The translations under genes and the position numbers were made by a program. From an uncultured delta proteobacterium (GTDB lineage Bacteria > Desulfobacterota > Binatia > Binatales > Binataceae), in contig CAVZGB010000021.1 of the NCBI GenBank assembly GCA_963774665.1, positions 255,467 through 319,466 on the forward strand: DNA of 64,000 bases. Reading direction: 5' to 3'. The notes below the pieces were generated by a model. That model was not told the origin of the DNA, did no database searches, and saw nothing but the letters and a program-made list of their open reading frames with translations. Of the stretch, positions 154-43,748 are shown one piece after another (positions within the stretch are counted from its first letter, which is position 1; each line of letters starts with the position of its first letter).

Positions 154-265
154 GTCACTTTTATTTTATGTGAAACCCGCCGTGGGTTTCACACTTCCTT
201 GGGCAGGGGCGACCCCTGCACCCAATGTTAAGACGAAGATGCGGGACTTCGTCCCTGTTCGAACG
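154..265 (+). repeat. Structured intergenic repeat, family 1, copy A. It has three consecutive hairpins: GTGAAACCC/GGGTTTCAC, CAGGGG/CCCCTG and GGGAC/GTCCC.
   Basis: About 90% identical to 43644-43748 and to the reverse-oriented partial copy at 4529-4596. It begins 15 nt after the upstream stop codon. Confidence 0.8.
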
Positions 266-291
266 GGTGAAGAGGATCCGTCTGCGCACGA

Positions 292-1914
292 TTACTTTGG
301 AGCGGCGACCTGCTTCTTTACGAGGTAAAAATATCGATGGCCGAGGCCGAACGGGCCGGGCCATTTTAGCCGCCGGACGACTTCCATGCCGGCGATCGGT
401 TCGCTCGCGATCGTGTACTCGTTCACTTTCGGCGACGTGATCATCGGGATTCCCGACTCGAGCTCCATCGTTTCGATTCCATGCTTGGGGTACCGATAAA
501 GATCTTCGCCGTTGAGCGGATAGCCCGCATCGATCGCTGATCGCGGAACTCCCTGGTGCTCCAGTTCGTTCCGGGTCGCGAGGACCACGGCCAAACCTCG
601 TTGATACGCATACGTCCCGCCTAGCGACATCAAGCCCATCGCGAGCGTCATCGCAAATCCCGCTGCCATGACCAGCCTCCTTCGAGGGAGCGGCGCAAGC
701 GCAAGCACGATCGCGCCGGCCGGCACCAGCACCAAGTAATAGCGATCGTTGTAAAACCATAACGGCACGGTAGCAGCCCAATAAATTAACGCCGCTATCA
801 GGATCGCCGCCGACGCTCGCCCGAGAGTTTTGAAGGTTGACGCTAGGGCAACGAAAAATCCGGCCGCGCCCACGCTCGCGAGCGCCAGCAGCACGTACTG
901 CCAGTCGCCTTCCCACATAAAGCGATTCGCCCCTCCGCGCAGTATCAGGACGTTGTGCCAACCGCCGAAGCAACTGTACTCGGGCGTTACGGGTAGCTCA
1001 TGGTCCAACTGCATCAGGATCAGAGCGGCTGCGAAAATCCCGACACCATAGAGCACCACTCTCCGCCATCGCGACGTTGTGAGCTGCAGAATCGCCAGCG
1101 GCGACAATACCGTGCCCAGGTAGAGCGCCGGGCCGAGCAATCCTGCGCGCAGGTAGGTCGCGAGCGGCACCAAAAAAAGGTAGTGGAAACGATTTTCGTT
1201 GAGCAGCAGGTCCCACGGCTTCGGGCCCAATACCGTCAGCCAGATCCACAGCCCCGTGCAGACCGCCAGCGCGACGCCGAACGGCGCCATCATCTTGATC
1301 CATCGCGCGAGGTCCCACCGATTGGTTCCGCGCGGCCTCGCATCGTAAACCAGCATCGCGCCGACGCATCCTGCTATCGCCATCGCGCCGAACGGCCGAA
1401 TCATGAATGCGATCACCGCCATCGCCGCGGCTAGCCACATCCACAACTGCTCGTGCTCCCCTTCCGCCTTGGCGAATGCAAGATGCGCCGCGACCAGCGC
1501 GGTCAGAAACGGAATTTCGGTCATGAACGAAAAACTCAGGAAGGTGAAGCACGGATTGCAGATCAGCAGCCCCGTCGCCGCGAGCGCCTGCCATCGCGGC
1601 GCTCCGCATTTGATCGCGAGCGCGTGGAACATCACGCCGCACAGCACTGCCAGCATCACCACCGACAGTTCCAGCGAAACCGAGTTCGCGCCGAACGCAT
1701 GCGCCCAGCCCACGCCGTAGAAGACCTGCGCTATCGGCATGTCCTGCGTGAAGCCGGCGAACCTCATCTCACCGGTGCGCAGGAACCGCCGCACGGCAGA
1801 GTCGTAGAGCCAACTGTCCACGACGGGCGCTTCCGTCAGCGGATGTAAAATCCAAAGCGCAAACGCGTACCATCCGATCACCACCGCTGCCGCGGTCCAT
1901 CCTGCGCGCCTCAT
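292..1914 (-). CDS. Polytopic GT-C fold membrane glycosyltransferase (ArnT/PMT-like, GT39/GT83-type) with a C-terminal soluble domain
   Basis: 540-aa ORF with 10 or more predicted transmembrane helices and an ArnT/PMT-type periplasmic loop layout. It is adjacent to ArnB-like and UXS-like genes. Family call is by resemblance only. Confidence 0.55.
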   Translation of the reverse strand: MRRAGWTAAAVVIGWYAFALWILHPLTEAPVVDSWLYDSAVRRFLRTGEMRFAGFTQDMPIAQVFYGVGWAHAFGANSVSLELSVVMLAVLCGVMFHALAIKCGAPRWQALAATGLLICNPCFTFLSFSFMTEIPFLTALVAAHLAFAKAEGEHEQLWMWLAAAMAVIAFMIRPFGAMAIAGCVGAMLVYDARPRGTNRWDLARWIKMMAPFGVALAVCTGLWIWLTVLGPKPWDLLLNENRFHYLFLVPLATYLRAGLLGPALYLGTVLSPLAILQLTTSRWRRVVLYGVGIFAAALILMQLDHELPVTPEYSCFGGWHNVLILRGGANRFMWEGDWQYVLLALASVGAAGFFVALASTFKTLGRASAAILIAALIYWAATVPLWFYNDRYYLVLVPAGAIVLALAPLPRRRLVMAAGFAMTLAMGLMSLGGTYAYQRGLAVVLATRNELEHQGVPRSAIDAGYPLNGEDLYRYPKHGIETMELESGIPMITSPKVNEYTIASEPIAGMEVVRRLKWPGPFGLGHRYFYLVKKQVAAPK

Positions 1915-2008
1915 CGACTCCTGCCTTGCTCCCGTTTTGACCTATCCCTTATACTCCGAAATTAACTCGACCAACGGGACTGCACCGATTTCAATCGAAT
2001 CACACACG

Positions 2009-3190
2009 ATGCGACAAGTAGCTTTTCATCGTCCGTCCATCGGACCCGACGAGGAGCGTGAGGTACTCGACACCCTGCGCTCCGGATGGATCACCACCGG
2101 CCCCAAGGCCAAGCGCTTCGAAACCGAATTCGCCGACTACGTCGGCGCCAAACACGCCCTCGCCCTTTCCCATTGCACCGGGGCGCTGCATCTCTCGCTA
2201 TGGGCGCTCGGCATCGGCCCCGGCGACGAGGTTATCACCACGCCGTTCACCTTCACCGCGACTGCTGAAATTCTCGGCTACCTCGGCGCGCGTCCGGTGT
2301 TCGTCGACGTCGATCCCGGCACCTTCAACATCAATCCCGCCCGTATTGAGGAGGCGCTCGAGAGCGGCGCGAACAAACGCGTCCGCGCGATTCTGCCGGT
2401 TCACTTCGCCGGTCATGCCTGCGACATGGACCGGATTCTCAACATCGCGCGCACCTACAATTTGAAAGTTGTCGAAGATGCCGCGCACGCCGCCGGTTCC
2501 GCGCGCCACATGGACGGCCGCGGGATGGCGAAAGTCGGCACCATCGGCGACCTCACCTGCTTCAGTTTCTACGCCACCAAAAATTTCACCACCGCCGAGG
2601 GCGGCATGATCACCACCTCGGACGACGCGCTGGCGGAGAAAATCGCGGTCGCCAGCCTGCACGGGATGAACAAGGACGCGTGGAAGCGCTACGACAAGAG
2701 CGGCTCGTGGTACTACGAAATCCACGACATGGGCTTCAAGTACAATCTGTCCGACGTGCACGCCGCCATCGGATTGGCTCAGCTCAAGCGCGCCGACGAC
2801 TTCATGCGCCGACGCGGTGAAATCGCGCGCGCCTACAACGACGCCTTTCGCGGCGACGACGCGCTCCAGCCTGCGTACTCCGAGCCCGGCATCGAGCACG
2901 CCTGGCATCTCTACGTCCTGCGGATCCGCCCCGAGCGGCTCAAGCTCGGCCGCAATCAGTTCGTCGAACTTTTGCGCGAGCGCGGCGTCGGATGCTCCGT
3001 GCACTGCATCCCGCTGCACACGATGCACTACTACCAGCGGATGTACGGTTACCGCGACGGCGATTTTCCCATCGCCGAAGACATCTTCAGCCGATGCCTG
3101 TCGCTGCCCATTTACGCCGCCATGACCGACGACGACGTGGCTTACGTGATCGAAACCGTTCGCGCCATCGCGCGTGAAAACCGTCGCTGA
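2009..3190 (+). CDS. DegT/DnrJ/EryC1/StrS PLP-dependent sugar aminotransferase (ArnB-like, UDP-4-keto-pentose aminotransferase)
   Basis: Motifs are collinear with ArnB: SGWITTGPK, GDEVITTP, ILPVHFAG, VVEDAAHA, FSFYATKNFTTAEGGMITT, FKYNLSDVHAAIGLAQL and HAWHLY. The ORF track starts at 1937; the ArnB-like N-terminus begins at M25 (MRQVAFHRPSIG). Confidence 0.8.
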   Translation: MRQVAFHRPSIGPDEEREVLDTLRSGWITTGPKAKRFETEFADYVGAKHALALSHCTGALHLSLWALGIGPGDEVITTPFTFTATAEILGYLGARPVFVDVDPGTFNINPARIEEALESGANKRVRAILPVHFAGHACDMDRILNIARTYNLKVVEDAAHAAGSARHMDGRGMAKVGTIGDLTCFSFYATKNFTTAEGGMITTSDDALAEKIAVASLHGMNKDAWKRYDKSGSWYYEIHDMGFKYNLSDVHAAIGLAQLKRADDFMRRRGEIARAYNDAFRGDDALQPAYSEPGIEHAWHLYVLRIRPERLKLGRNQFVELLRERGVGCSVHCIPLHTMHYYQRMYGYRDGDFPIAEDIFSRCLSLPIYAAMTDDDVAYVIETVRAIARENRR

Positions 3191-3205
3191 CCCGGGAGAA
3201 CAACT

Positions 3206-4147
3206 GTGCGAACACTGGTAACCGGCGGAGCAGGATTTCTCGGCTCTCATCTATGCGAGCGCCTGCTCAAGGACGGCGAGGAGGTCATCTGCCTCGACAA
3301 TTTCTTCAGCGGCAAACGCGCCAACATCTCGCATCTGCTCGGCAACCGCAATTTCGAATTCATCCGTCACGATGTAGTCGAGCCAATCCTGCTCGAAGTC
3401 GATCGCATCTTCAGCCTTGCTTGCCCCGCCTCGCCCGTGCATTACCAATACAACCCGGTGAAGACCACAAAGACCTCGGTAATGGGCACGATCAACATGC
3501 TGGGCCTCGCCAAGCGGGTCCACGCACGCATCCTGCTCACGTCGACCAGCGAAGTTTACGGCGACCCCGAGGAGCATCCGCAAACCGAATCATATTGGGG
3601 AAACGTAAATCCGATCGGCGTGCGCTCCTGCTACGACGAGGGCAAGCGCGTCGCCGAATGCCTCATGATGGACTATCACCGGCAGAACAACGTCGACACT
3701 CGCATCGTGCGCATCTTCAACACTTACGGCCCGCGGATGGCGATCAACGACGGCCGCGTGGTCTCGAACTTCTGCGTCGCTGCACTGCGCGGCGAAGATC
3801 TCGAGATTTACGGCGACGGCAATTCGACCCGCTCGTTCGCCTACGTCGACGACATCATCGACGCCCTCGTGCGCATGATGAATCAGGACACGCATATCGG
3901 GCCGGTGAACATCGGCAACCCCGACGAATTCACGATCGCGGAACTCGCCAAGCTCGCGATCGAGCTGGCGGGCAGTTCCTCGAAGGTAGTGATCAAGAAT
4001 CCGCGCGCCGACGATCCAGTCCGCCGCAAACCAAATATCGAGCTGGCGAAAAAAGTTCTCGGATGGGAGCCGCGTATCGCGCTTCGCCCCGGCCTCGAAA
4101 AAACCATCCTGCATTTTCGCGAAATACTCGGCATCCCGCAGAAATAG
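3206..4147 (+). CDS. UDP-glucuronate decarboxylase (UXS-type short-chain dehydrogenase / ArnA-decarboxylase-like)
   Basis: 313 aa with GTG start. [10 protein letters not shown] Rossmann motif and YDEGKR catalytic motif. Strongly UXS1-like along its whole length. Confidence 0.8.
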
Positions 4148-4242
4148 CGCGCTTTTGTAAGCAGCCGTTCGGCTTGCGATTCGTTTCCGACGGCGACAAG
4201 ATAATCTTAGAGTCCTTTCTCCGCGCAAATCACCGAAGCATC

Positions 4243-4524
4243 ATGAATTCAAGGATTTCGCGAGCCGCGTTCCCATTGCTTTTGTTAGTCGCGATCGCGG
4301 GATGCTCCGCGACACCACCGCCGCCTGCTCCCGCGCCGGCGTCAATCGTGTACATGCCGCCAGATCCCAATCCGCCTCCGCCCGACGAATGGAACATATT
4401 GCCCGACCCGACCACCGGTCAGGTCGACGTCTATCATCAAGGCGGCTACGTAGGCTCCGTCACCGGCGACGAGCCCGCCAACCAGGACCCACCAATCCCG
4501 CACCCCGTCCCGCGCACGGACTAA
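4243..4524 (+). CDS. Small proline-rich lipoprotein
   Basis: Last 93 codons of the 3253..4524 frame. Lipobox LLLVAIAGC followed by a Pro-rich tract. The upstream part of that frame overlaps the UXS gene out of frame and is not coding. Confidence 0.45.
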   Translation: MNSRISRAAFPLLLLVAIAGCSATPPPPAPAPASIVYMPPDPNPPPPDEWNILPDPTTGQVDVYHQGGYVGSVTGDEPANQDPPIPHPVPRTD

Positions 4525-4528
4525 ATAC

Positions 4529-4596
4529 TGGGCGCAGGGGTTACCCTGTCGAAGGAAGTGTGAAACCCACCGCGGGTTTCACATTAAATAAAGTTC
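4529..4596 (-). repeat. Family 1 repeat, truncated copy B in reverse orientation (first two hairpins only)
   Basis: Its reverse complement matches copy A positions 161-230. It lies between the convergent lipoprotein and acyl-CoA dehydrogenase genes, so it sits 3' of the minus-strand gene. Confidence 0.7.
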
Positions 4597-4613
4597 TCCA
4601 GTTCCCCTGCCCT

Positions 4614-5786
4614 TCACTTCAGAAGGTTGCGCGCGATCACGACGCGCTGAATCTGCGAAGTGCCCTCGTAGATCTGTAATAACTTCGCGTCGCGCATCAG
4701 CTTCTCGACCGGATATTCCTTCATATAGCCATAACCGCCGAAAATCTGCACCGCGTCGGTCGTGATCCGCATCGTCGCGTCGGCGCTAAACGCTTTCGCG
4801 TACGCTGAAATCGTGTTCGCCCCCTGTCCCTTGTCGACCAGCCACGCCGCCTTGTACGTCAGCAGCCGCATCGCTTCGATTTCGATCGCCATGTCCGCCA
4901 TCATGAACTGGATCGCCTGGAAGTTTGCGATCGGCTGCCCGAACGCGCTGCGCTGCTTCGAGTACTTGAGGCATTCGTCGAGCGCGCGCTGCGCAATCCC
5001 GATCGCGATCGCGCCAATCTCCGGCCGGCTGTGATCGAACGTCGCCATCGCGTACTTGAAGCCCTCGCCCTCGCGCCCGACCAGCGCGCTGGCCGGAATC
5101 CGCACGTCCTCATAAAAAATTTCGCCGGTATCCGCGGCGCGCTGCCCGAGCTTGCCATGCATCCGGTTGCGCGTGATTCCCGGCACACTCGACGGAAACA
5201 CGAAGCATGAGATGCCCTTGTGCTTGAGCCGCTTGTCCGACGTCGCGAAGGTGACGTACCAGTCCGCGCGCGACCCATTCGAGATGAAATGCTTGGTGCC
5301 GTTGAGGATGTACTCGTCGCCCTCGCGCCGATAGGTCGTGCTCATCGCAGCGACGTCCGAGCCCGCGCCTGGCTCCGTGATCGCGAACGCGCAGAAGGTC
5401 AGCTTCTTTACCAGCTGCCCGAGATAGGTTCGCTTCTGCTCGTCGTTGCCCGCGATCAGAATCGGCAGCGTCGCGAGGTCGTTGGCGCCGACCGCGTTCG
5501 AGATTCCCGCGCATCCGTAGTTCAGCTCCTCGACGATCAGGCTGGTGTCGAGCACGCCAAGCCCCGGTCCGCCCAGCTCCTTCGGTACTCCGAAGTTCAT
5601 CAGCCCCGCCGCGAACGCCTTCTCGCACACGTCGACCGGAAAAATTTCCTTTTCATCGTACTCACGAGCGCGCGGAATTATTTCCTGCTCGGCAAACTTA
5701 TGCGCCAGCTGTTTCAGTTCGAGCTGTTCGTCGGTCAAATCAAAACCCAGCATCGTAATATTCTCCCCGCGATCGATCGTCGCCAT
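4614..5786 (-). CDS. Acyl-CoA dehydrogenase
   Basis: 390 aa with typical ACAD N-terminal, middle and C-terminal domains (…YEGTSQIQRVVIAR…). Confidence 0.9.
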   Translation of the reverse strand: MATIDRGENITMLGFDLTDEQLELKQLAHKFAEQEIIPRAREYDEKEIFPVDVCEKAFAAGLMNFGVPKELGGPGLGVLDTSLIVEELNYGCAGISNAVGANDLATLPILIAGNDEQKRTYLGQLVKKLTFCAFAITEPGAGSDVAAMSTTYRREGDEYILNGTKHFISNGSRADWYVTFATSDKRLKHKGISCFVFPSSVPGITRNRMHGKLGQRAADTGEIFYEDVRIPASALVGREGEGFKYAMATFDHSRPEIGAIAIGIAQRALDECLKYSKQRSAFGQPIANFQAIQFMMADMAIEIEAMRLLTYKAAWLVDKGQGANTISAYAKAFSADATMRITTDAVQIFGGYGYMKEYPVEKLMRDAKLLQIYEGTSQIQRVVIARNLLK

Positions 5787-6039
5787 TTGTGTTAATCGAC
5801 CGCACGCCCCAATGAAAGAGCAGCGCCTTCTGTCATGCTGAGGAAGCGAGCAGCGCGAGCGGAAGGAAGCATCTCGGACAGGTTCGCTTCACGCGAACCC
5901 GGTTCCGGTCTCTGTAATCGCGCGCTTCGCGCGCTCCTCTATCAGCCGCGCCGTTCGCTCAAAGCTCTTGCGCGCCTTGAAAAACCGCGCGCATGTCGAT
6001 ACGAGGGTAGATGAGTTTGAAAACTAAAGGAGATCCACG

Positions 6040-6339
6040 ATGCCGATTACCGTGATTGCGAAACTTAAAGTACAGCCCGGCAAAGACGCCGAGTTCGAAG
6101 CAGCAGCAAAACAAATGATCGCGACCGTGAAAACCGCTGAGCCCGGCACTCTTTCCTACGTCCTCCACAAAAACACCAAGGATGCGACCGAGTTCATCTA
6201 CTACGAGGTCTACCAGGATCAGGCCGCGTTCGACGCGCACGGCAAGACTGATCACATGAAAGCTTTCGGTGGCAAAATCGGCGCGCTGCTGGCCGGCCGC
6301 CCGGAGATCTCGATCCTCCAGGAAGTCGCCCGCAAATAA
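6040..6339 (+). CDS. Antibiotic-biosynthesis-monooxygenase (ABM) domain protein / putative quinol monooxygenase
   Basis: 99 aa matching the ABM fold pattern. Strong RBS AAGGAG lies 8 nt upstream. Confidence 0.65.
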   Translation: MPITVIAKLKVQPGKDAEFEAAAKQMIATVKTAEPGTLSYVLHKNTKDATEFIYYEVYQDQAAFDAHGKTDHMKAFGGKIGALLAGRPEISILQEVARK

Positions 6340-6344
6340 TATCT

Positions 6345-6431
6345 GCGCGATTGTTGCCCTTCCCTCGGGTTAGGCAGACTCTAATTCCGGTTCCCCTTCC
6401 CACTCGGGGAGGGCTTGGGGGTTAGGTTGCT
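6345..6431 (+). repeat. Structured intergenic repeat, family 2, copy i: a CCCCTTCCC-loop-GGGRAGGG hairpin followed by GGGGTTAGGTT, about 1.5 units
   Basis: Shares CGCGATTGTTSCCCTTCCCTCG…GGTTAGG with 12495-12544. Also related to 43830-43870, 60695-60738 and 50237-50278. Confidence 0.75.
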
Positions 6432-6668
6432 GCTTTTGGAGATGTCCAACTTTGCCTGACCCCAGCGGATTTTCTGTGCTACGCATATTCGCGTGGACAA
6501 ACGTCATCACATCCCGGCGTCGCCCAAATGAGGCGACGCCGGCTTCTATTTGACGGAACGAGCTACCCTTGATAGCGCCATGACGCATTTTTGCTGGTGA
6601 AAATCTCCTCCGGCAAAGATTTAGTTCTGATAGGAGGTTCAGAATATTGCGTACTAGAGGGAGGAACG

Positions 6669-7865
6669 ATGGCACGCAGCAACGGATGGATGCGCAGGAA
6701 ATGGCGGTCTCTAATTTTCGCGTCTGCGATCAGCAGCCTGATTATTTTCGCAAACGGGACAGCGTCCGCTAAAACAACTCCCCCGCTTTCGCTATGCGTT
6801 AATCACGCCGGCTCGGGCGGATGCTTAACCACAATCCAGGGCGCAGTGGACATGGTGCCGGCGGGCGGCAACGCGACTATTACCATCGCTGCCGATGTCA
6901 CCCCGTACGTAGAAGACGTCACTGTCACCGACGCAACCGTCAGCTTCGTAGGCGGCGGTGCTGGAATGACCGTGGTGGACGGCACCAACGTTTCGAGCAT
7001 TCCCACATTCAAGTTTCAAAATGATTCGAATGGCGAGCTGCACTCGATGACGATCGAGAACGGCAACGGCGGTCAAGGCAGCAACGTGAATTTCATCCAG
7101 TTCGCTTCGAAGGGCAACGGGGGCGTCGGAACCCTGAAGATCGAGAATTGTGAAATTACCGGCGGTGTACGGCCTTCCAACATCCTTCCGGAGGGCGCCA
7201 TCTTTTTCGTCGGAAAGACGCTCATCATCGATTCCTCCAGCATCGACAACAATGTGGACCAGGGCATTCTCATCGGTGGCGCGCCACACGTATTCATCAC
7301 CAACACCACCATCAGCGACAACGACACCACCGGCAATAACGGCAATGCGACCGGATGCGGAATGCACATTTCGTCGGGCACAGTTGTGCTCAACAACGAC
7401 ACCATCACAGACAACCATTGCGTGGGAGGTTCCGGCCACGGGCAATCGCCGACTGTAGGGGGCGGACTTTTCATCGATTTCCCCGCCAAAGTCTCGATAT
7501 CGAACACCGTGATTGCAAACAATACCGTCGCTGGCACTTTGCCCGCCGGGCCGGACTGTTTTGCACCCGGCAAGGGCGTCAAGTCGAAGGGATTCAATCT
7601 GATAAAGGATACCTCGTCCTGCACTATCAAGCTCCAGAAATCTGATATCGCCGCGGGAACCGACCCTTCGCTGGGTTCGCTCGCTGCGTGTGCGTCCAGC
7701 GGACTCGAGGTTGAAACGCCGCTGGGAGGCAGCCCGATAATTGGAAAAGGAAATCCGGGCAAGCTTACCGGCAAGGTTGGCGCTAAGGGCTCGAGCTGTC
7801 TGCCCACCGACGAATGCGGAGCCGCGCGCGCAAAAGGAACGTGCACCATCGGCGCTGCCCAATGA
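6669..7865 (+). CDS. Secreted right-handed parallel beta-helix repeat protein (pectate-lyase-fold; possible polysaccharide lyase or adhesin)
   Basis: Signal peptide MRRKWRSLIFASAISSLIIFANGTASA. Repeated motifs ITG/IxN/NNT…DN/G-rich rungs, and a Cys-rich C-terminus. The ORF track begins at TTG 6591; the internal ATG at about 6669 gives a proper signal peptide. Confidence 0.55.
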   Translation: MARSNGWMRRKWRSLIFASAISSLIIFANGTASAKTTPPLSLCVNHAGSGGCLTTIQGAVDMVPAGGNATITIAADVTPYVEDVTVTDATVSFVGGGAGMTVVDGTNVSSIPTFKFQNDSNGELHSMTIENGNGGQGSNVNFIQFASKGNGGVGTLKIENCEITGGVRPSNILPEGAIFFVGKTLIIDSSSIDNNVDQGILIGGAPHVFITNTTISDNDTTGNNGNATGCGMHISSGTVVLNNDTITDNHCVGGSGHGQSPTVGGGLFIDFPAKVSISNTVIANNTVAGTLPAGPDCFAPGKGVKSKGFNLIKDTSSCTIKLQKSDIAAGTDPSLGSLAACASSGLEVETPLGGSPIIGKGNPGKLTGKVGAKGSSCLPTDECGAARAKGTCTIGAAQ

Positions 7866-7924
7866 AGGGTTCGCTGACGACGTGAAATATTTTATACTTC
7901 AAGTAATGGTTTAGATTAATCACA

Positions 7925-10538: not shown

Positions 10539-10541
10539 CTC

Positions 10542-11257: not shown

Positions 11258-11260
11258 GCT

Positions 11261-11689: not shown

Positions 11690-11768
11690 GAGCGTCGAGG
11701 TTGCGCGTCTGCTCGACTACCAGTTCGCCTGCGCGATGCTTGCGTATCGCCATGTCGCCGTTCGTGAT

Positions 11769-11999: not shown

Positions 12000-12089
12000 C
12001 GCTACCTCCGGGGTTCTGCTTGAACAATAGAATCCACGCCGAGCGCGCGCAATTGAATCCGCCCGCAGCGCGGCTAATACTCATTCGCG

Positions 12090-12494: not shown

Positions 12495-12544
12495 CGCGAT
12501 TGTTCCCCTTCCCTCGAGGGAAGAGGTTAGGGGTTAGGTTGCCG
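12495..12544 (+). repeat. Family 2 repeat, copy ii (CCCCTTCCC TCGA GGGAAGAGG hairpin followed by TTAGGGGTTAGGTT)
   Basis: Immediately 3' of acpS, between convergent genes. Related to 6345-6431, 43830-43870 and 60695-60738. Confidence 0.75.
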
Positions 12545-12676
12545 CGGATCGAGAATAGGCCGAAAGGACGCCGCAACGCAAAACCGGAACCGGCGGCGCT
12601 TACGCGCCGCTGTCCGGAGGCCAGAAGCCAGTTCCTGCCGCTCGCGTTGCTCGCTTCGGTCAGGATGACAGGGAGG

Positions 12677-22682: not shown

Positions 22683-22686
22683 GACT

Positions 22687-31598: not shown

Positions 31599-31645
31599 TG
31601 GGCGGAAGATTGCGATATAAAGAGTGGGCGTTTGAGGAGGAGTCG

Positions 31646-33662: not shown

Positions 33663-33664
33663 CG

Positions 33665-37857: not shown

Positions 37858-39359
37858 CTCTTCGCCGCGGTTTCGAAATCGCGCGCGGCCTGGAGTGCCC
37901 GCACCATTGCGCGAGCCTTGTTCACCGACTCCTCGAACTCGGCGCCGGGGTCAGAATCTGCGACGACGCCGCCGCCTGCCTGGATGTACACGCGGTCCTT
38001 CTTGATCAGCAGCGTGCGCAGCGCGATCGCGGTGTCGGTGTTGCCGGTGTAGCTGAAGTAGCCGACCGCGCCCGCATAGACGCCGCGACGCACCGACTCG
38101 AGCTCGTCAATGATTTCCATCGCGCGGATTTTCGGCGCGCCGGAGACTGTCCCTTGTGGAAAGGTCGCGGCGAACGCGTCGAACGCGTCGCATCCTTCGC
38201 GCAGCACGCCGGTGACGTTCGACACGATATGCATCACGTGCGAGTAGCGCTCGACCACCATCAGCTCGGTCACTTTCACCGAACCGATTTCAGAGACGCG
38301 GCCGACGTCGTTGCGCCCGAGGTCGACCAGCATCACGTGCTCGGCGCGTTCCTTTGGATCGGCGAGCAGCTCGGCTTCGAGTTCGCGGTCCTCGGCCTCG
38401 GTCACACCGCGGCGGCGAGTGCCTGCGATCGGCCGCAGCGTGATCTCGCGACCCTCGACTCGCACCATCACCTCAGGCGACGCGCCGACCAGCGTCTGAT
38501 CGCCCAAGCGCAGGTAGAACATGTACGGCGACGGGTTAATCGTGCGCAGGCTGCGGTAGATATTGAACGGATGCGCGGTGAGAGGCGCTTCAAAGCGCTG
38601 CGACGGGACGACCTGGATAACGTCGCCGGCCGCGATGTATTCCTTCGCGGCGGAGACCATCGCCATGTAGCCTTCGCGCGTCATGTTCGAGGTGATCGAC
38701 GTGTCGTTGATCGCGACGTTGCTCGCGCCTTCGAGAAACGGCGGCACGGCGGGACGCTTGAGGCGCTCGATTATCTCGTCGATCTTAATGCGCGCGCTTT
38801 GATACGCCATTTTCGTCGAGGCGAATTCCTCGACCGGCACGTTGGCGATAATTTTGAGCGTCTGGCGGACGTTGTCGAAACACAGCACCGTGTCGGTGAA
38901 CATCAGGTGAAAATCCGGAGTGCCGAGATCGTCGGTGGCGGTTTCGGGAATCTTCTCGAAACATCGCACGATGTCGTAAGCGAGAAATCCGACGGCGCCG
39001 CCGAAGAAGCGCGGCAGGTTGGGCAGCTCGGGGGCGCGGAAGCGCTTGACCTCGGCGCGCAACTCCTCGAAGGAATTCTCGACCGAGCGCACCTCGACGC
39101 CGCGGCCGGGCCGGATGATATCCATGCGGTTCTTACGCGCGCGCATGACGAGGAAAGGATCGGAGCCGAGGAAGGTGTAGCGGCCCCATTTCTCGCCGCC
39201 GCGAACGCTCTCGAGCAGGAAGGCGTAATCGTCGCGCGCGATTTTGAGGAAGGCGGAGACCGGAGTCTCGAGATCGGCGGCGACCTCCTCGAAAACCGGG
39301 ATGAGGTTGAATCCGTCAGCCGCCAGTCGTTCGAATTCTTTTTCCGTTGGCTGCAACAT
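37854..39359 (-). CDS. trpE: Anthranilate synthase component I
   Basis: 501 aa. Chorismate-binding domain …[12 protein letters not shown]…GAVGYFSY…. Confidence 0.95.
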
Positions 39360-39393
39360 CTAGTTTGCCTCTGTTACGTCCGACTCCATCACT

Positions 39394-39435
39394 CCAAAAA
39401 GAAAAGGGCCGCAGGTTTCGCCTGCGGCCCTTTTT
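39394..39435 (-). terminator. Intrinsic terminator of the trp attenuator (GGGCCGCAGG-CGAAA-CCTGCGGCCC followed by UUUUCUUUUU on the minus strand)
   Basis: Perfect 10-bp GC stem, 5-nt loop and U-tract. Lies about 35 nt upstream of the trpE start and 27 nt downstream of the leader-peptide stop. Confidence 0.7.
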
Positions 39436-39456
39436 AAAAATCGGTTTTGCGATGAA

Positions 39457-39537
39457 CTACAAAGCCGGCGCGCAGGCGGGTGCATCGAGGTGCCAGCGCC
39501 ACCATCCCGCGCAAACATTTCGGCTCATGAGATTCAT
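39457..39537 (-). CDS. trpL: trp operon leader peptide (MNLMSRNVCAGWWRWHLDAPACAPAL*) with three Trp codons in a 4-codon stretch
   Basis: 26-codon ORF between the upstream gene's stop and the attenuator terminator. TGG TGG CGC TGG falls at codons 12-15. The CGCCTGCG segment in the ORF can pair with CGCAGGCG in the terminator's left arm, giving an antiterminator. Confidence 0.55.
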   Translation of the reverse strand: MNLMSRNVCAGWWRWHLDAPACAPAL

Positions 39538-39544
39538 CTTGGGG

Positions 39545-40270
39545 TTAATCATGATGGCGAGTCAGGTGCTTGTCAACTGGATGAGCCGTCCCGACTACTC
39601 CGAGGGTGAAGTTCAGGGTGGTGAAGTATGGGACGAAGAGGCCGCCGGATTCGGTGACGTCGAAGTAGCGCGCGATGCGTTCGATCATCAGGCGGTCGTC
39701 GAAGCCGGTGTGTTCGTGACGCGGGATTTTGTCGGTTTGGCTTAGCGCGCCTGCCACCAGGTCGCGCCAGGACAGGCGGTCGCCGTACATCCCAAGCGCA
39801 CGGTAGCCGAGTTGCTTCGCTACCAGCATCGCGCCGCGCTCGACCGGGATAGTGAAGAACACCGGGCCGCGCACGACGCGCGCGAGAAGCCGCAGATAGC
39901 CATCGACGTGTTCGTCGGGAAGGTGCTCGAGCGTCTCCATGCAGATGCCGACGTCGAAGGTCGCCGACAGGTCGATGTCGGATGGCGATTTCGATTTCAT
40001 GATCGCCACTTCGGAGCGCGTGGCCCATTGCGCCTTTACCCAGTCCAGGATGTCGTCGTCGGCCTCGTAGCCGACGTATCGGTTGACGGCAATACCGCTG
40101 CGCTCGAGGTAGGAGATCGTTTTTGCGTCGTAGCATCCGATTTCGATTATGTCGGCGCGGCGGATGTTCAGCCGGCGCAATCGATCGACGAGCCACCAGA
40201 AGCGGCGCTCGTGCAGGAAGCGGCGCGCGCGATTACCGTTAAAGAGACTATCGTTGTAGGTGTCGGGCAT
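39545..40270 (-). CDS. Class I SAM-dependent methyltransferase (putative)
   Basis: Rossmann-like …IIEIGCYDAKT…VGYEADDD… and LEHLPDE. The start is taken at MPDTYND, because the first 28 codons of the track ORF run through the AT-rich palindrome. Confidence 0.5.
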   Translation of the reverse strand: MPDTYNDSLFNGNRARRFLHERRFWWLVDRLRRLNIRRADIIEIGCYDAKTISYLERSGIAVNRYVGYEADDDILDWVKAQWATRSEVAIMKSKSPSDIDLSATFDVGICMETLEHLPDEHVDGYLRLLARVVRGPVFFTIPVERGAMLVAKQLGYRALGMYGDRLSWRDLVAGALSQTDKIPRHEHTGFDDRLMIERIARYFDVTESGGLFVPYFTTLNFTLGVVGTAHPVDKHLTRHHD

Positions 40271-40271
40271 T

Positions 40272-40349
40272 AGTAGGACGAAATTTATTTCGTCGATTCC
40301 GATTTGACGGAATAAACTATTTATTTGACGGAATAAATTCCGTCCTACT
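40272..40349. promoter_or_regulatory. AT-rich dyad-symmetric element: 22-nt imperfect inverted repeats (GTAGGACGAAATTTATTTCGTC … GACGGAATAAATTCCGTCCTAC) flanking a direct repeat TTTGACGGAATAAA x2
   Basis: Seen directly. About 30% GC in a genome that looks 60-65% GC. Lies between the SPOR-protein gene stop and the methyltransferase start. Confidence 0.5.
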
Positions 40350-40350
40350 G

Positions 40351-41049
40351 TCAATGCGAGGTCGTGTAGGCCTGCTTGTATTGTTCGCGCAGTTGGTTTT
40401 GTGCGGCGTTGGCTTCGTCGGCGCTCGCATAAGGGCCGACGCGGACGCGATACCAGACCCCGCCGTTGAGCGCGGTTTTCACTTCCTGCGCGTTGTAGCC
40501 AAGGCCCTTCAGCCGCGAGACCATCTCGTCCGCCCCACTCTTGTCCATCACGGCTTCGATCTGAATGTTGTAACCCTTGGAGCCGGGAGGAAGAGCGCGC
40601 GGCGGTGCGGTGGGCGCCGAGGCTTCCTCGGTATCGTCTTCGGTGTCCTCATCAGATGGAGGGTTAGCCGCAGGCGCCACGGCCGGCGGTCTGATGCGTG
40701 CGACGGCGGCCGGTGAAGTTCGCGCTGCGGGATGCGCTTCGCCGATTGCGGGCGCTGGCGGTTTGACCGGCTCATGCGGGATGGCGGGCACGGCGGCCCG
40801 CCCCACTGATGGCGGCACCGACGCGACCGCAGGCGACGCGGCGGCCGCCGGCGACATCTCGGATACCGGAGGCAGCTTTTCAGGGGGATTCGGCAGCGGG
40901 TAGGTCGAAGAGATTTGACTCACGTCGGGCTGCGTCTGCCGCGCCATCTCGTAGCCCGCGACCAGTCCCAGCGCGAAGACCGCACCCGAGAGTCCGACCA
41001 ATCCGGCTAGAATCAGAAACCCGCCGCCCGCCCTGATTTCGAATCGCAT
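40351..41049 (-). CDS. SPOR-domain cell-division protein (FtsN/DedD-like): N-terminal transmembrane anchor, Pro/Ala-rich linker, C-terminal SPOR
   Basis: C-terminal …GYNIQIEAVMDKSGADEMVSRLKGLGYNAQ…GVWYRVRVGPYASADEANAAQNQL. Lies downstream of argS, as is typical. Confidence 0.75.
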   Translation of the reverse strand: MRFEIRAGGGFLILAGLVGLSGAVFALGLVAGYEMARQTQPDVSQISSTYPLPNPPEKLPPVSEMSPAAAASPAVASVPPSVGRAAVPAIPHEPVKPPAPAIGEAHPAARTSPAAVARIRPPAVAPAANPPSDEDTEDDTEEASAPTAPPRALPPGSKGYNIQIEAVMDKSGADEMVSRLKGLGYNAQEVKTALNGGVWYRVRVGPYASADEANAAQNQLREQYKQAYTTSH

Positions 41050-41065
41050 CAGCTTCTTCCGTTCC

Positions 41066-42742
41066 TCACATCCGCTCCGGAGCGCTCACTCCGAGCAACT
41101 CCAGTCCGCCCGCGATCGCATCCTTGAGAATCCCGGCCATGTACATCCGCGCCAAACTGAGCTCGCGATCCGGTCCAATTATACGATTCGCGGGCTTGTT
41201 GTAGTAGCGATGGAACTCGCCGGCCAAATCGAGCAGATAGAACGGAATCCGATGCGGCTCGAGCGCCTCGGCGGCGGCGGACATGACGTCGGGGAGTCCA
41301 ATCGCGCGCTTGGCGAGATCGAGTTCCTCGGCGCCGAGCAAATTGAGATCGATCGCGGACGTGTCCGCGGGAAGCGTCAAGTCCTTCGCTGCCCCCTCGC
41401 GGAAGATACTCGCGAGGCGCGCGTGCGCATACTGGACGTAAAAGACGGGATTTTCCGGCGCCTGCTTTTTGGCGAGTTCGAGATCGAAATCGAGCTGGCT
41501 GTCGGACTTGCGGAACAAAAAGAAAAATCGCACCACGTCGGCGCCGACCTCGTCGATCAACTCGTCGAGCGTGACGTATGTCGCCTTGCGCGTCGACATT
41601 TTGACTTTCTCGCCAGCGCGCGTGAGCGTGACGAACTGGTAGATGATCGCGTGGACCGGAGTGATGTCGTAGCCGAGCGCCTTGACCGCGGCGATGACCT
41701 CCTGGTGCTCAGCGATATGATCGGCGCCGAAGACGTCGACGATCAAGTCGAAACCGCGCTTCAGCTTCTCGATGTGATAGGCGATGTCGGGCGTGCGGTA
41801 AGTCGGCTGCTTGTCGGGTCCGGAGCGCACCAGCACCGCATCCTTGGGAAGTCCAAGCGGCTCGCCGCGCAGGAATATCGCGCCGTCCTGCTCGAAGGTG
41901 AGACCCGCGTCGTGCAAAGCCTTCAGGACATCGTCGACCTTTCCCGCGTTGAAGAGATCGAGTTCGTTGGTGAAGACGTCGAAGCGTATTCCGAGGCGCG
42001 TGCAGGTCTGATTGATGTCGGCGAAGATCGCTTTGACAGCCACCGAGCGGAAAATCTCGAGATCGGTCACGGACACGAGCGAATCGCCCCGCTCCGCTTT
42101 CAATGCGCGCGCGATGTCGACGATGTACTCGCCCTGGTAGCCGTCGGGGGGCATCGGAGCGTCGATGCCGTGCGCTTGCAGATAGCGCGCTCGGACCGAC
42201 TCGCCGAGCAGCTTCATCTGGCGGCCGCCGTCGTTGAAATAATATTCGCGCGTTACGTCGAAGCCCGCCGCCTCGTAAAGGCGCGCGATCGTGTCCCCGA
42301 GCACCGCATTGCGGCCATGACCGACGGTCACGGGTCCGGTGGGATTTGCGGAGAGAAATTCGACCTGGACCTTCTTTCCAGCGCCCGGACGCAACTCCCA
42401 CGAGCGTGGCTTCCAGAACGCGCGGCCCGCGCTCGCAGCCTGGCGCATCTCGGAATGCCAGTACGTCGGCGACATTTTGAAATTGATGAAGCCGGGGCCG
42501 GCGACTGAGACCTCGCTTACTTCGGCGGGCAGCGTGACGTGCGACTTGATTATCTCGGCGATTGCGCGAGGCGGTTTGCGCTCGGGCTTCGCGAGCGTCA
42601 GCGCGATGTTCGAGGCGATGTCGCCGTGGGCGGAATCGCGCGGCGCCTCGATTCCGATCGACGGAACTTCGGAACTCAACTGACCAGCGGCGCGCGCCCG
42701 CCCGATTGCGTCGCGAAGGATGGAGACGATCAGTTCTTTCAT
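41066..42742 (-). CDS. argS: Arginine--tRNA ligase
   Basis: 558 aa with class I HIGH-type (…PTGPVTVGHGRN…) and KMSK-like (KMSTRK) motifs, plus the C-terminal DALR anticodon-binding domain. Confidence 0.95.
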   Translation of the reverse strand: MKELIVSILRDAIGRARAAGQLSSEVPSIGIEAPRDSAHGDIASNIALTLAKPERKPPRAIAEIIKSHVTLPAEVSEVSVAGPGFINFKMSPTYWHSEMRQAASAGRAFWKPRSWELRPGAGKKVQVEFLSANPTGPVTVGHGRNAVLGDTIARLYEAAGFDVTREYYFNDGGRQMKLLGESVRARYLQAHGIDAPMPPDGYQGEYIVDIARALKAERGDSLVSVTDLEIFRSVAVKAIFADINQTCTRLGIRFDVFTNELDLFNAGKVDDVLKALHDAGLTFEQDGAIFLRGEPLGLPKDAVLVRSGPDKQPTYRTPDIAYHIEKLKRGFDLIVDVFGADHIAEHQEVIAAVKALGYDITPVHAIIYQFVTLTRAGEKVKMSTRKATYVTLDELIDEVGADVVRFFFLFRKSDSQLDFDLELAKKQAPENPVFYVQYAHARLASIFREGAAKDLTLPADTSAIDLNLLGAEELDLAKRAIGLPDVMSAAAEALEPHRIPFYLLDLAGEFHRYYNKPANRIIGPDRELSLARMYMAGILKDAIAGGLELLGVSAPERM

Positions 42743-42862
42743 TGCAGCAGCCGTGGGCGCTTACCGCAATCGTGTCAGATAGAAGCCGTCATGTTAAGGC
42801 GGGTTGACCCTCGCGACGGTGCGATGCGAACGTGGAAGCCAATCATATAGAGGTTATCCACA

Positions 42863-43642
42863 ATGGAACTCGGACTTGGCGGCAAAGCGGCAATCGTCAC
42901 TGGCGGGAGCAAGGGAATCGGGCGCGCGACCGCAATCGGGCTCGCAGCGGAAGGCGCGTCGGTGCTGGTATGCGCGCGCGGTCGCGAGGCGCTGGATGAA
43001 ACCGTAAAGCTGGCGCGCGGACGCGACGGCGCTCGCGTTGAAGCGATCCAGGCGGACCTCAACCAACCTGAAGACGTGAAGCGAGTCGTCGCGCGATGCG
43101 TCGAGGCGTTCGGCAAAATCGACATCCTGGTGAACAACGCGGGCAGCGCGCGGCCCGGCGATTTTCAGAAGCTCACCGATGACGAATGGCTCGAGGATTG
43201 GAATCTCAAGTTCTTCGGCTACGTGCGAATGGCGCGCGAAGTCTTGCCGCAGATGCAAAATCAGGGGCATGGCGTCGTTGTCAACGTGATCGGAACCGGC
43301 GGGCTGATCCCGACTGGCGGCTACATGATCGGCGGATCGGCAAATGCTGCGCTCAACCATTTTACCAAGGCGCTCGCGAACGAGGGATCGAAGCATGGCG
43401 TGCGCGTCGTGGGCGTGAATCCAGGGCCTATTTTCACCGACAGGCTGCGTCTATTCACCGAGCGGCGCGCAGCGGGCGGCAACATCGACGAGGTGCTGAA
43501 GCGGATGACGCCGCTCGGGCGTCCCGGCAAAGCGGAGGAAGTCGCGGACCTGGTGATGTTCCTCGCGTCGGAGCGGGCGGCTTTCATTCATGGCGCGAAC
43601 ATCACGATCGACGGCGGCGCGAATCCGGGGCTGATCGGGTAA
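42863..43642 (+). CDS. SDR-family oxidoreductase (3-oxoacyl-ACP reductase-like)
   Basis: TGGSKGIGRA cofactor motif, NNAG, and a Y-x3-K catalytic core. Confidence 0.85.
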   Translation: MELGLGGKAAIVTGGSKGIGRATAIGLAAEGASVLVCARGREALDETVKLARGRDGARVEAIQADLNQPEDVKRVVARCVEAFGKIDILVNNAGSARPGDFQKLTDDEWLEDWNLKFFGYVRMAREVLPQMQNQGHGVVVNVIGTGGLIPTGGYMIGGSANAALNHFTKALANEGSKHGVRVVGVNPGPIFTDRLRLFTERRAAGGNIDEVLKRMTPLGRPGKAEEVADLVMFLASERAAFIHGANITIDGGANPGLIG

Positions 43643-43643
43643 G

Positions 43644-43748
43644 TCACTTTATTGAATGTGAAACCCGCGCGTGGGTTTCACGCTTCCTTGGGCAGGGGTG
43701 ACCCCTGCACCCAGTGAGAAGAAAAGATGCGGGACTTCGTCCCTGTTA
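43644..43748 (+). repeat. Family 1 repeat, copy C (full three-hairpin unit)
   Basis: Starts 2 nt after the SDR gene stop. About 90% identical to copy A at 154-265. Confidence 0.8.

Follow-up and report, generated by a model that had tools for sequence, protein, structure and literature searches.

The REP and BIME elements of Enterobacteria and Pseudomonas are short palindromic extragenic units, enriched after gene 3' ends, which form mosaics with other motifs, frequently occur as inverted doublets and have been proposed to act as barriers protecting the upstream mRNA. A conserved GTAG (or CGTC) tetranucleotide reportedly heads the REP palindrome, and the genes of RAYT (Y1 transposase) are typically flanked by their REPs. 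To our knowledge, neither a loop-linker pseudoknot nor a length-matched linker is known in REPs. The modular repeats of Gram-positives and Neisseria (BOX, RUP, SPRITE, Correia and ERIC/IRU elements) are non-autonomous, intergenic and ~100 nt long, have stable RNA folds and can affect nearby transcripts in their stability or termination. Telomerase RNA, the SAM-II and preQ1-II riboswitches and viral 3' UTRs contain H-type pseudoknots in which a strand lies along the helix groove; ENE triple helices and exonuclease-resistant RNAs are comparable in function. As summarised in PMC12306157 (its reference 17), E. coli REPs are concentrated 1-20 nt past ORFs and affect translation when they lie <16 nt from the stop.

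The repeat described here shares with REP/BIME elements the short palindromic units, the extragenic location, the enrichment after gene 3' ends (many copies lie <=20 nt from a stop), the mosaic combination with other motifs, the frequent inverted doublets and the proposed barrier role. It differs in being a composite of ~77-110 nt, in the wide spacing of its doublets (100-700 nt, where REP doublets are tightly spaced) and in having a predicted loop-linker pseudoknot whose linker length is matched to the stem. The GTAG or CGTC head is absent from our alignments: the first hairpin (HP1) starts with GTGAAACCC after AAT, the second (HP2) with GGCAGGGG. With BOX, RUP, SPRITE, Correia and ERIC/IRU elements it has modularity, intergenic location and length in common, whereas their terminal inverted repeats, target duplications or boxA-B-C arrangement were not seen, and neither a plasmid search nor Rfam detected any sequence relationship. 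Integron attC sites are similarly structured, 60-140 nt long, fold as single strands and start at or in the stop of the preceding ORF. Unlike these, the present copies stand in both orientations after housekeeping genes, tens of kb apart; the three in the analysed 64-kb stretch are separated by 4 kb and 39 kb and follow dehydrogenase and acyl-CoA dehydrogenase genes. We rejected an attC assignment, as cassette arrays and an integrase were missing and the ends fit RYYYAAC/GTTRRRY poorly.

Results

Three copies in the window

In the window, i.e. the whole 64-kb stretch of DNA that was analysed, GTGAAACCC-N(3-9)-GGGTTTCAC occurs exactly 3 times, as compared to 0 occurrences in 100 shuffles. A previous sequence-only reading had placed three copies, about 90% identical, at 154-265 (c1), 43644-43748 (c2) and, reversed, 4529-4596 (c3). 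Their positions are correct and pairwise identities are 85-91%: 91.3% between c1 and c2 over 104 aligned bases, and 85% and 88% between c3 and c1 and c2, respectively. A covariance model run over the whole 64 kb with filters off scored c2 at 93.4 bits and c3 at 78.4 bits and revealed no fourth or diverged copy. The features are as follows.

1..138, plus strand: 3' end of the gene preceding c1, partial, without Pfam hit (orthologous locus L085, flanks 91% identical)
139..169, plus strand: c1 leader, a G-rich tract (GGGGGAAG) and then the AT-rich, stop-rich box CACTTTTATTTTAT, which is conserved in the alignment
170..192, plus strand: c1 HP1, GTGAAACCC / loop GCCGT / GGGTTTCAC; compensatory changes at pairs 1, 2 and 4 in the unbiased sample
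193..202, plus strand: c1 pyrimidine linker ACTTCCTT with G201 and G202; T200, G201 and G202 predicted to pair with loop G182, C181 and C180
203..219, plus strand: c1 HP2, GCAGGGG / CGA / CCCCTGC
220..264, plus strand: c1 spacer ACCCAATGTTAAGACGAA and optional type-A module GATGC-GGGAC-TTC-GTCCC-TGTTCGAAC, third hairpin (HP3) at 243-255
4522-4524: stop of the convergent small gene, far border of c3
4525..4613, minus strand: c3, full core without 3' module (leader 4613-4583, HP1 4582-4560, linker 4559-4551, HP2 ~4550-4534, tail to 4525)
4614..5786, minus strand: acyl-CoA dehydrogenase gene upstream of c3, used in the orthologue presence/absence test
43643..43657, plus strand: c2 leader GTCACTTTATTGAAT, immediately behind the TAA that ends a short-chain dehydrogenase gene (42863-43642)
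43658..43708, plus strand: c2 core (HP1 43658-43681 with a 6-nt loop, linker 43682-43691, HP2 43692-43708)
within 43658..43708, plus strand: c2 predicted pseudoknot pairs C43670-G43690 and G43671.T43689
43709..43752, plus strand: c2 spacer and type-A module, HP3 at 43731-43743, tail TGTTAGGAG

The distances of 2-17 nt given earlier between stop codon and copy are correct for all three. The TAA before c1 lies at 136-138, with the conserved part from ~154; c2 starts at 43643/43644 after the TAA at 43640-43642, and c3 at ~4596 on the minus strand after a TGA (TCA on the plus strand, 4614-4616). The reversed c3 follows the minus-strand acyl-CoA dehydrogenase gene in matching orientation, as had been noted. 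It had also been called truncated, but its core (leader, HP1 and HP2) is complete and only the optional third module is missing. This copy occupies the entire 89-nt gap separating two convergent stop codons (4524 and 4614), and c1 and c2 likewise lie between convergent genes. The description of three stem-loops per unit was accurate except for the N5 first loop, which is 6 nt in c2.

A repeat family of Candidatus Binatus/Binataceae

A scan of reference genomes yielded at least 115 further loci, all but a few of them titled Candidatus Binatus, Binataceae or uncultured deltaproteobacterial MAGs, and a metagenome scan yielded at least 120; soil metagenomes hold many more copies. A purely local duplication is thereby ruled out. 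Among the matches listed, the 115 genome loci plus the window contain at least 133 exact-pattern copies, and the covariance model added ~33 diverged copies in the first 100 loci, ~1 extra per 17 kb. The window has 3 copies per 64 kb, and across the DNA sampled the family recurs about every 17-21 kb, a distribution reminiscent of the REP/BIME elements of enterobacteria. Rfam 15 gave 0 matches for the whole window, with only chance-level hits (E >= 4.6) around c2; the family is absent from Rfam 15 and from the literature searched, and the plasmid search returned no hit. The copies belong to one family of dispersed repeats, modular and structured, that is specific to the lineage of Candidatus Binatus/Binataceae (phylum Binatota in NCBI/GTDB naming), a group of uncultured soil bacteria.

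Anatomy of the element

The core of ~77 nt comprises an AT-rich, stop-rich leader, the 9-bp hairpin HP1, a pyrimidine linker and the adjoining HP2. The leader box ACTT-N-ATT-N-AAT is conserved across the aligned copies. Both HP1 (23 nt) and HP2 (17 nt) are palindromic; HP1 is a perfect 9+9 palindrome of near-invariant sequence, and most stem positions are near-invariant in sequence, not merely in pairing. HP2 also occurs with other upstream and downstream modules and is common to other repeat families. The third hairpin, previously regarded as a fixed part of the unit, belongs to one of at least two alternative 3' modules. Copies carry type A (the commonest, which contains this hairpin), type B or, in about one third of cases, no module.

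Compensatory change in the stems, which the sequence-only reading had suggested looking for, was found at HP1 pairs 1, 2 and 4 in an unbiased sample and at the apical pair of HP2 (G:C in 100 copies, C:G in 11, U:A in 4). The nested stems contain 6 G.U pairs vs 12 A.C mismatches, small numbers that give no G.U excess.

A conserved predicted pseudoknot

The hairpins are not three independent ones, as had been supposed. Three of the five HP1 loop nucleotides are complementary to the 3' end of the linker, an H-type pseudoknot arrangement, and mutual information in the alignment peaks at this loop/linker pair. At its centre, 55 copies have a G:C pair, 49 have C:G and 3 another combination; the flanking pairs are C:G (102) or U:G (9), and G.U (87), G:C (13) or A:U (7). 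The observed covariation score was reached in 0 of 500 shuffles, and slid-partner controls were far lower. A third compensated state combines the loop ..CGC with the linker ..CCGC-G. The two main states show no linkage to other variable sites or to the type of 3' module. In an independent metagenome sample anchored on HP2, the central pair is C:G in 28, G:C in 24 and other in 4 copies, and a second parse of this sample gave 62/65 Watson-Crick pairs. Three compensated states, and a pattern reproduced across two differently ascertained samples, support by compensatory change a conserved predicted H-type pseudoknot as part of the element.

The linker keeps pace with the stem: 9-bp stems have 9-nt linkers in 59/62 copies and 8-bp stems 8-nt linkers in 5/5, and variants combine a 7-bp GC-rich stem with a 6-nt linker and a 4-bp stem with a 3-nt linker. 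Linker base 3 covaries with stem pair 4: U accompanies A-U in 46 copies and C accompanies G-C in 12, with 4 exceptions. This one position suggests a triplex of the linker along the stem. On the opposite strand, the conserved G.U of the pseudoknot would become a C.A mismatch, so the pseudoknot argues for one particular strand; all strand evidence comes from it, the nested stems being silent.

With the groove-strand pseudoknots of telomerase RNA and its like, the Binatus element shares a hairpin loop that pairs downstream, a pyrimidine strand spanning a purine-rich stem arm, the covariation from U with A-U to C with G-C, and a presumed location at an RNA 3' end. It differs in its short second stem of 2-3 base pairs, the lack of association with ligand genes and its very many copies after unrelated genes.

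Genomic context

Genes were called with a crude codon-score caller written for this analysis. Among the 124 copies with a called upstream neighbour, this neighbour is co-oriented in 81, and only 2/133 copies lie inside a called gene. A co-oriented stop codon is found 0-40 nt before HP1, sometimes inside the leader, for ~72 copies; ~40 copies have no co-oriented ORF ending beside them. A position always just 3' of a stop codon, as proposed from the window, therefore holds only for its three copies; in the family as a whole, about two thirds of copies abut the stop of a co-oriented gene. The broader part of that proposal is borne out: the repeat is of REP type, non-coding, dispersed and structured, is concentrated at the 3' ends of genes and points the same way as the gene upstream. 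Tight abutment is one-sided, with the 5' end of the element against stop codons, and the distance to the next downstream gene is broad. Divergent intergenic regions contain 16/114 copies. Neighbouring copies within 1.5 kb are convergent in 20 cases, divergent in 2 and tandem in 8; since convergent doublets predominate, a sense copy faces transcription arriving from either side. Copies without and with a co-oriented upstream gene are equally intact: the pseudoknot is complementary in 38/40 vs 64/68, and HP2 is intact in 33/43 copies without such a gene vs 57/76 of the rest.

Gain and constraint at one locus

The acyl-CoA dehydrogenase locus carries the element in 4/5 members of a clade ~90% identical in the DNA of this gene (L081, L086, L088 and the window). 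It is absent from the fifth member and from all 8 more distant orthologues, which were fetched by protein. Between filled orthologues, 17-23% of the third codon positions in the adjacent gene are different. Nevertheless, the HP1 and HP2 stems are identical in L081, L086 and L088, while loop, linker and leader differ, and compensated switches of the pseudoknot state occur across the four filled orthologues. Comparison of the filled sites with an empty one (L236) gave no target-site duplication. In the alignments inspected, the ends ..ACTTTATTTAAT and ..TGTTAGAAC share a complement of <=5 nt, the exact element ends not being sharply defined, and no obvious terminal inverted repeats were found; a MITE was rejected on these two grounds. 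The earlier statement that the repeat is not like a mobile-element terminal repeat agrees with these ends, but was too strong in view of the gain at an orthologous locus in the Binatus lineage. In our preferred reading, insertion placed copies at gene ends as Binatus evolved, and they were retained thereafter.

Discussion

We judge the chances about even that the repeat is a mobile structured element, similar to REP/BIME, which serves as a 3'-end barrier in the transcript of the gene upstream. The element would be transcribed as the 3' end of that mRNA, its compact pseudoknot-plus-hairpin fold would block 3'-to-5' exonucleases, and it would insulate transcript ends between closely packed, often convergent genes. 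The data show the family with its anatomy, the pseudoknot covariation, the biases in position and orientation, a gain at one locus and stems under constraint; the RNA nature of the folded molecule, the block of decay or read-through and the mode of spread we infer. Copies lacking a co-oriented gene would be expected to decay if upstream mRNA were the sole source of constraint, and their equal intactness argues against this. The near-invariant stem sequence fits protein recognition or recent spread better than a generic barrier.

A less likely but serious alternative is purely selfish mobile DNA of the REPIN or non-autonomous type. Hairpins and loop-linker pairing would then be features of the single-stranded DNA substrate of a transposase encoded elsewhere, and the gene-end position would mark where insertion is tolerated or targeted, which is compatible with the barrier explanation. 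The gain at the acyl-CoA dehydrogenase locus, the intactness of copies in any gene context, convergent doublets resembling REP doublets, the mosaic architecture with an HP2 common to other repeat families and the near-invariant stems all agree with it. However, tblastn with a single distant query, E. coli RayT, over 1.66 Mb around ~250 copies gave a best E of 0.35 and no RAYT, a search of limited sensitivity. Neither terminal inverted repeats nor, between filled and empty sites, a target-site duplication were seen, and the one-sided abutment and the near absence of divergent doublets also speak against selfish DNA, as does the integrity of stems in copies inherited vertically. Individual old copies are not usually kept intact by selection for transposition, although gene conversion could do so.

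Intrinsic (Rho-independent) terminators that happen to share sequence would account for the location after stop codons and between convergent genes, for a stable 9-bp HP1 followed by CUUCCUU and for the T-rich stretch after both 3' modules (...GTTAGAAC-TTTTTT and ...GGTTC-TTTT). Canonical terminators are not enriched in window positions 1-6000 (5 vs 6.1 expected), so something else may do their job. Yet a terminator scan flagged no hairpin of c1 or c3, and no hairpin stands directly before a U-tract: runs of at least 4 T occur in 17/50 type-A and 9/26 type-B copies, starting at least 9 nt past the stem, and ~1/3 of copies have no 3' module. A terminator requires no conserved sequence, nor does it require a pseudoknot whose formation has to await transcription of the linker. 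We regard this explanation as improbable, and the terminator part of the sequence-only reading is not upheld. A double-stranded DNA site bound by a dimer such as a nucleoid-associated protein, gyrase or IHF, a role suggested for BIMEs, seems less probable still. It would suit the near-invariant HP1 palindrome, and, the IHF consensus being WATCAANNNNTTR, the leader AATCACTTTATTG is one mismatch away and may be a candidate site. Against it, pairing and not sequence is kept by the compensatory changes, which affect three pairs of HP1, the apical pair of HP2 and the pairing between loop and linker; the latter contains a conserved G.U and is possible on a single strand only; and longer stems go with longer linkers. 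None of these points follows from a duplex binding site. That each copy is a separate small-RNA gene driven by a promoter of its own is very improbable. The element is structured, ~60-110 nt and multicopy, and some copies are located between divergent genes, but nothing conserved is found 35 nt upstream, a space often taken by the coding end of the preceding gene. The AT-rich box has no good -10 hexamer, and the only promoter-like match is a weak one (9/12) on the opposite strand of c1. A small RNA processed out of the 3' UTR is possible.

A more elaborate form, rather doubtful when all its parts are taken jointly, is a self-spreading RNA 3'-end module: a mobile cassette with pseudoknot and triplex, a stop-supplying leader and a mobilising enzyme other than RAYT. 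The pyrimidine linker would lie along the purine-rich arm of HP1 as a short triplex, making the element a bacterial counterpart of viral and eukaryotic exonuclease-resistant and ENE-type 3' structures, and leader stop codons in several frames would allow landing at or in a gene end. As for the 3'-end barrier itself, copies whose hairpin starts <=15 nt from the stop may also affect the terminating ribosome, as is reported of E. coli REPs.

A dispersed repeat of Binatia in the window and beyond

The repeat is a dispersed, REP/BIME-like element found in Binatia, and its conserved core is predicted to form a pseudoknot; this bears out the REP-type option of the sequence-only reading. Three copies (c1 to c3) lie in the window, exactly where that reading had placed them:

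154-265, + strand: c1; upstream gene partial, without Pfam match
43644-43748, + strand: c2; upstream gene a short-chain dehydrogenase (42863-43642, Pfam)
4529-4596, - strand: c3; upstream gene an acyl-CoA dehydrogenase (4614-5786, minus strand, Pfam)
4148-4524, + strand: small gene on the far side of c3, without Pfam hit

Over these coordinates c1 and c2 are 91.3% identical, and the minus-strand copy c3 shares 85% identity with c1 and 88% with c2. The first hairpin (HP1, GTGAAACCC-N5/6-GGGTTTCAC) is exact in all three copies and in none of 100 shuffles. A covariance model of the repeat (R1), run over the whole window with filters off, found just c1, c2 and c3 (scores 93, 91 and 78 bits). All three have more stable folds than their shuffled versions (z -2.0 to -3.2), as do the reverse strands, because the stems are Watson-Crick. 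Convergent genes flank all three copies.

The minus-strand copy c3 had been called truncated. It occupies the whole 89 nt separating two stop codons, and the C-terminus of the gene on its far side (..GSVTGDEPANQDPPIPHPV..) is kept in four other genomes; c3 is therefore a complete core minus the third hairpin, not a broken copy. The C-terminal region of this small gene reads ..DEWN(I/L)LPDPTTGQVDVYHQGGYVGSVTG.EPA.QDPPIPHPV. A mechanical ORF list fuses the gene into a spurious long ORF (3253-4524) overlapping the epimerase gene at 3206-4147. Public calls at three fetched loci (L236 3160-3438, L238 3159-3476, L239 3171-3473) are ORFs of 92-105 aa without Pfam hits, directly after the acyl-CoA dehydrogenase gene, and correspond to this small convergent gene.

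No description of the element was found in Rfam 15 or in the papers searched: Rfam 15 gave no match at gathering thresholds on the whole window and none in E-value mode around c2, and literature on Binatota repeats and the hairpin sequence yielded nothing relevant. Copies extend far beyond this contig region. Scanning one genome per species with HP1 plus CTTCC listed at least 115 loci, nearly all in metagenome-assembled genomes (MAGs) titled Candidatus Binatus, Binataceae or 'uncultured delta proteobacterium', with several genomes supplying many loci each. Together with the window these loci hold at least 133 exact-pattern copies. Within the first 100 loci R1 picked up some 33 additional, more diverged copies. 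The flanking DNA thereby gains about one copy per 17 kb, which agrees with three per 64 kb in the window. A metagenome scan anchored only on the second hairpin (HP2) gave at least 120 soil loci (forest, peat and permafrost). Plasmids yielded no match and 2.9 million viral contigs only three.

A constant core with variable modules

Oriented copies share a constant core followed by a variable tail:

Leader: (A/T)CACTTTATT(T/G)AAT or GGAACTTAATTGAAT, often with GGGGAAGGG(G/T)AAA before it
Core order: leader, HP1, linker RCTTCCTT, HP2, then ACCC(A/G)GT..AAGA
HP2: GGCAGGGG-TGA-CCCCTGC
Type A tail (51 of 133 copies): third hairpin (HP3) with conserved flanks, GATGC-GGGAC-TTC-GTCCC-TGTTAGAAC
Type B tail (32 of 133): a different long hairpin, AATC-GCAAAATGGCG-AGGA-CGCCATTTTGC-TCTCAGGTTC
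No recognisable tail (50 of 133)

The three-hairpin unit first described is thus real for type A copies but is not the rule for the family. Where the tail is missing, this is often because a convergent gene starts at that point.

In the HP2-anchored metagenome loci HP2 proved to be a shared module in itself, found in these settings:

With canonical HP1
With HP1 variants
With a 4-bp mini-hairpin (AATCGCC-TGCGC-GGCG-GGC)
With a 7-bp GC-rich hairpin
Without HP1, another module following (L133, L144, L147, L150, L156, L201, L203, L207, L213, L221, L223)
In an unrelated-looking doublet family

The module that follows HP1-less HP2 is the hairpin AAGGCCGCGCTCCGTTGTCGCGCGCGGCC (23 copies). Such combinations are a mosaic of the BIME kind. 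The doublet family carries HP2 inside tight inverted doublets (AAGGGCCTCCGGCG-GGCAGGGGTGACCCCTGCACCC ... reverse complement; L128 1278-1382 and 4953-5018, L173, L180, L205, L168, L216); it is REPIN-like and comes from other metagenomes, possibly from another organism. At L048 (420-528) two copies of opposite orientation overlap and have one HP2 in common (HP1-HP2-HP1'), forming a compact palindromic unit. One minus-strand copy (L061, ~7239-7314) has a long C run and then a long T run just downstream, which looks like an assembly artefact.

Covariation predicts pairing of the HP1 loop with the end of the linker

RNAalifold on 44 type A copies recovered the three hairpins as proposed, with most stem positions invariant. 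Covariation predicts that the HP1 loop additionally pairs with the end of the pyrimidine linker between HP1 and HP2, forming a pseudoknot. Mutual information over 130 copies placed one pair far on top, namely base 3 of the HP1 loop and the final linker base before GGCAGGGG. A 117-copy alignment shows this central pair as G:C 55 times, as C:G 49 times and as something else 3 times. On one side of it stand C:G (102 copies) or U:G (9), on the other G.U (87), G:C (13) or A:U (7). The observed covariation score was matched by none of 500 shuffles, and sliding the 3' partners by 1-3 columns lowered pairing from 94% to 35-48%. Both central states are spread evenly across other variable positions and tail types and are therefore no artefact of two sub-families. 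A third state (loop ..CGC, linker one base shorter and ending ..CCGC) is also complementary. Because of the conserved G.U, only the strand shown can form the pseudoknot; the asymmetry of G.U against A.C in the nested stems added nothing as a strand test (6 vs 12, with an unreliable parse of HP3).

Since the pattern behind the first sample had fixed HP1 and CTTCC, the analysis was repeated on the HP2-anchored metagenome copies. Here the central pair is C:G in 28, G:C in 24 and other in 4, and compensatory change, which the sequence-only reading had proposed to look for in the stems, appears at three of the nine HP1 pairs: pair 1 (G:C 56, U:A 6, A:U 3), pair 2 (U:A 58, C:G 6, A:U 1) and pair 4 (A:U 48, G:C 14).

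Linker and stem change length together. A 9-bp stem goes with a 9-nt linker in 59 of 62 copies and an 8-bp stem with 8 nt in all five; the 7-bp variant has a 6-nt and the 4-bp variant a 3-nt linker. Moreover, linker base 3 follows stem pair 4 (U with A-U 46, C with G-C 12, four exceptions). Both observations fit a linker spanning HP1 to reach its loop. The register suits a strand of pyrimidines running parallel to HP1's purine-rich 5' arm (C.G-C, U.A-U, U.A-U) and not an antiparallel helix. A triplex of the linker along HP1 is put forward as a hypothesis, because the pattern may go back to a single ancestral change.

Two other pairings were rejected. A helix of the G-rich leader (GGGGAAGGGG) with CTTCC fails since copies with a CCTCC linker keep GGAAGGG leaders, without co-variation. 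Co-variation also links the central base of the HP2 loop to a position 3' of that hairpin (G:C 100, A:U 14), but for a second pseudoknot the 3-nt loop is too short to reach, the two states are not in the same register and the A:U copies look like a single sub-family; we treat this pair as a lineage marker.

Position and orientation relative to genes

Genes were called with a codon-score caller written for this analysis and trained on long ORFs of the fetched loci. The earlier claim that the repeat always lies just 3' of a stop codon holds for c1 to c3; family-wide it is a two-thirds rule. Of 124 copies, 81 have an upstream neighbour in their own orientation, and in about 72 its stop lies 0-40 nt before HP1, often directly before the leader and sometimes within it, so that the stop comes from the leader. 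The spacing to the next gene downstream varies widely. Convergent genes enclose 38 copies and divergent genes 16; in tandem gaps 37 copies are co-oriented and 23 anti-oriented. For 43 copies the upstream gene is on the opposite strand, and a missed ORF was plausible before just 2-3 of these. Neighbouring copies at most 1.5 kb apart are convergent in 20 cases, divergent in 2 and tandem in 8 (18, 0 and 2 within 700 nt). Such a convergent doublet presents a sense copy to transcription arriving from both sides.

Gain and constraint at the acyl-CoA dehydrogenase locus

As loci found via the element cannot reveal its absence, orthologues of the c3 upstream gene were fetched by protein (82-96% amino-acid identity). 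With R1, filters off, the element was absent from all nine such loci with DNA; in several, the next gene begins 10-30 nt past the stop. In the gene tree the filled window, L081, L086 and L088 form one clade of about 90% nucleotide identity with the empty L236 (16-nt gap), and all eight more distant orthologues are empty. The simplest history suggested by the tree would be one gain in this clade, then one loss. No target duplication is visible between filled and empty loci.

Third codon positions differ by 17-23% among the filled orthologues. The 30-odd bases of the HP1 and HP2 stems are nevertheless identical among L081, L086 and L088, which has a chance of about 0.0005 per pair at 20% neutral divergence. 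Either selection or conversion from other copies therefore keeps the stems unchanged. Unlike the stems, leader, loop and linker vary, and the pseudoknot is in the G:C state in the window and L086 and in the C:G state in L081 and L088.

Function and significance

We give about even chances to a role in RNA, in which the element would end the transcript of the upstream gene with a barrier to decay or read-through and, where the stop is very close, might affect terminating ribosomes. The precedent comes from E. coli REPs (PMC12306157). The main rival, a purely selfish element acting at the DNA level, we hold to be the less probable account, and it is compatible with a role in RNA. More decay had been expected in copies not placed after a gene, yet these are no less intact than the others; this counts against a purely mRNA-based role and against our preferred explanation. 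Concerning the REP comparison, the GTAG head is absent here, so membership is incomplete, and tblastn with E. coli RayT as the single query found no RAYT in the 1.66 Mb of DNA that surrounds some 250 copies.

The sequence-only reading had also offered a terminator or a small RNA; a canonical terminator or a small-RNA gene with its own promoter looks unlikely. As a canonical terminator the element fails, the scan flagging no hairpin of c1 or c3; terminator-like sites are not enriched in window positions 1-6000, and T-runs follow the tail modules in a minority of copies, at a distance from the stem. A promoter-bearing small-RNA gene was rejected, as there is no conserved -35/-10 and nothing is kept where a promoter would be. 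Gene context ruled out an attC array.

If the fold forms in RNA, it would be a new, well-supported structured motif, present about once per 17-21 kb in the DNA sampled from a phylum known through metagenomes only. One mobile module would then link many unrelated genes in their 3'-end biology. Three compensated pseudoknot states, with stem and linker lengths changing together, make the family a natural experiment, usable for studying how mRNA-end pseudoknots affect decay, read-through and terminating ribosomes. Should the structure serve transposition instead, this would point to mobilisation by an enzyme different from the known REP-associated transposase. In Binatia MAGs such repeats lead to assembly breaks and to false calls of small ORFs; a covariance model would improve annotation.

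Further repeats nearby

A second dispersed repeat, a TTCCCCTTCCC-N5-GGGAAGGGG hairpin followed by TTAGGGGTTAGGTT, likewise lies at gene ends:

6390-6442, 12502-12554 and 43831-43883, + strand: second repeat, one copy about 85 nt downstream of c2
60683-60731, inverted: second repeat

The fetched loci contain 58 matches to its 21-nt core when up to 3 mismatches are allowed. A 225-nt direct repeat (45223-45447 and 46045-46269; 94% identical, 822 nt apart) lies in two adjacent + strand ORFs (45283-45987 and 46105-46743) and probably reflects duplication of a gene in tandem. A third repeat, GTGTCATTC(A/T)GAGCGAAGCGAAGAATCC, is absent from the window; 23 copies are present in the fetched loci (e.g. 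L094 ~2380-2440, L067, L082, L084), often after the T-rich end of type A or type B modules.
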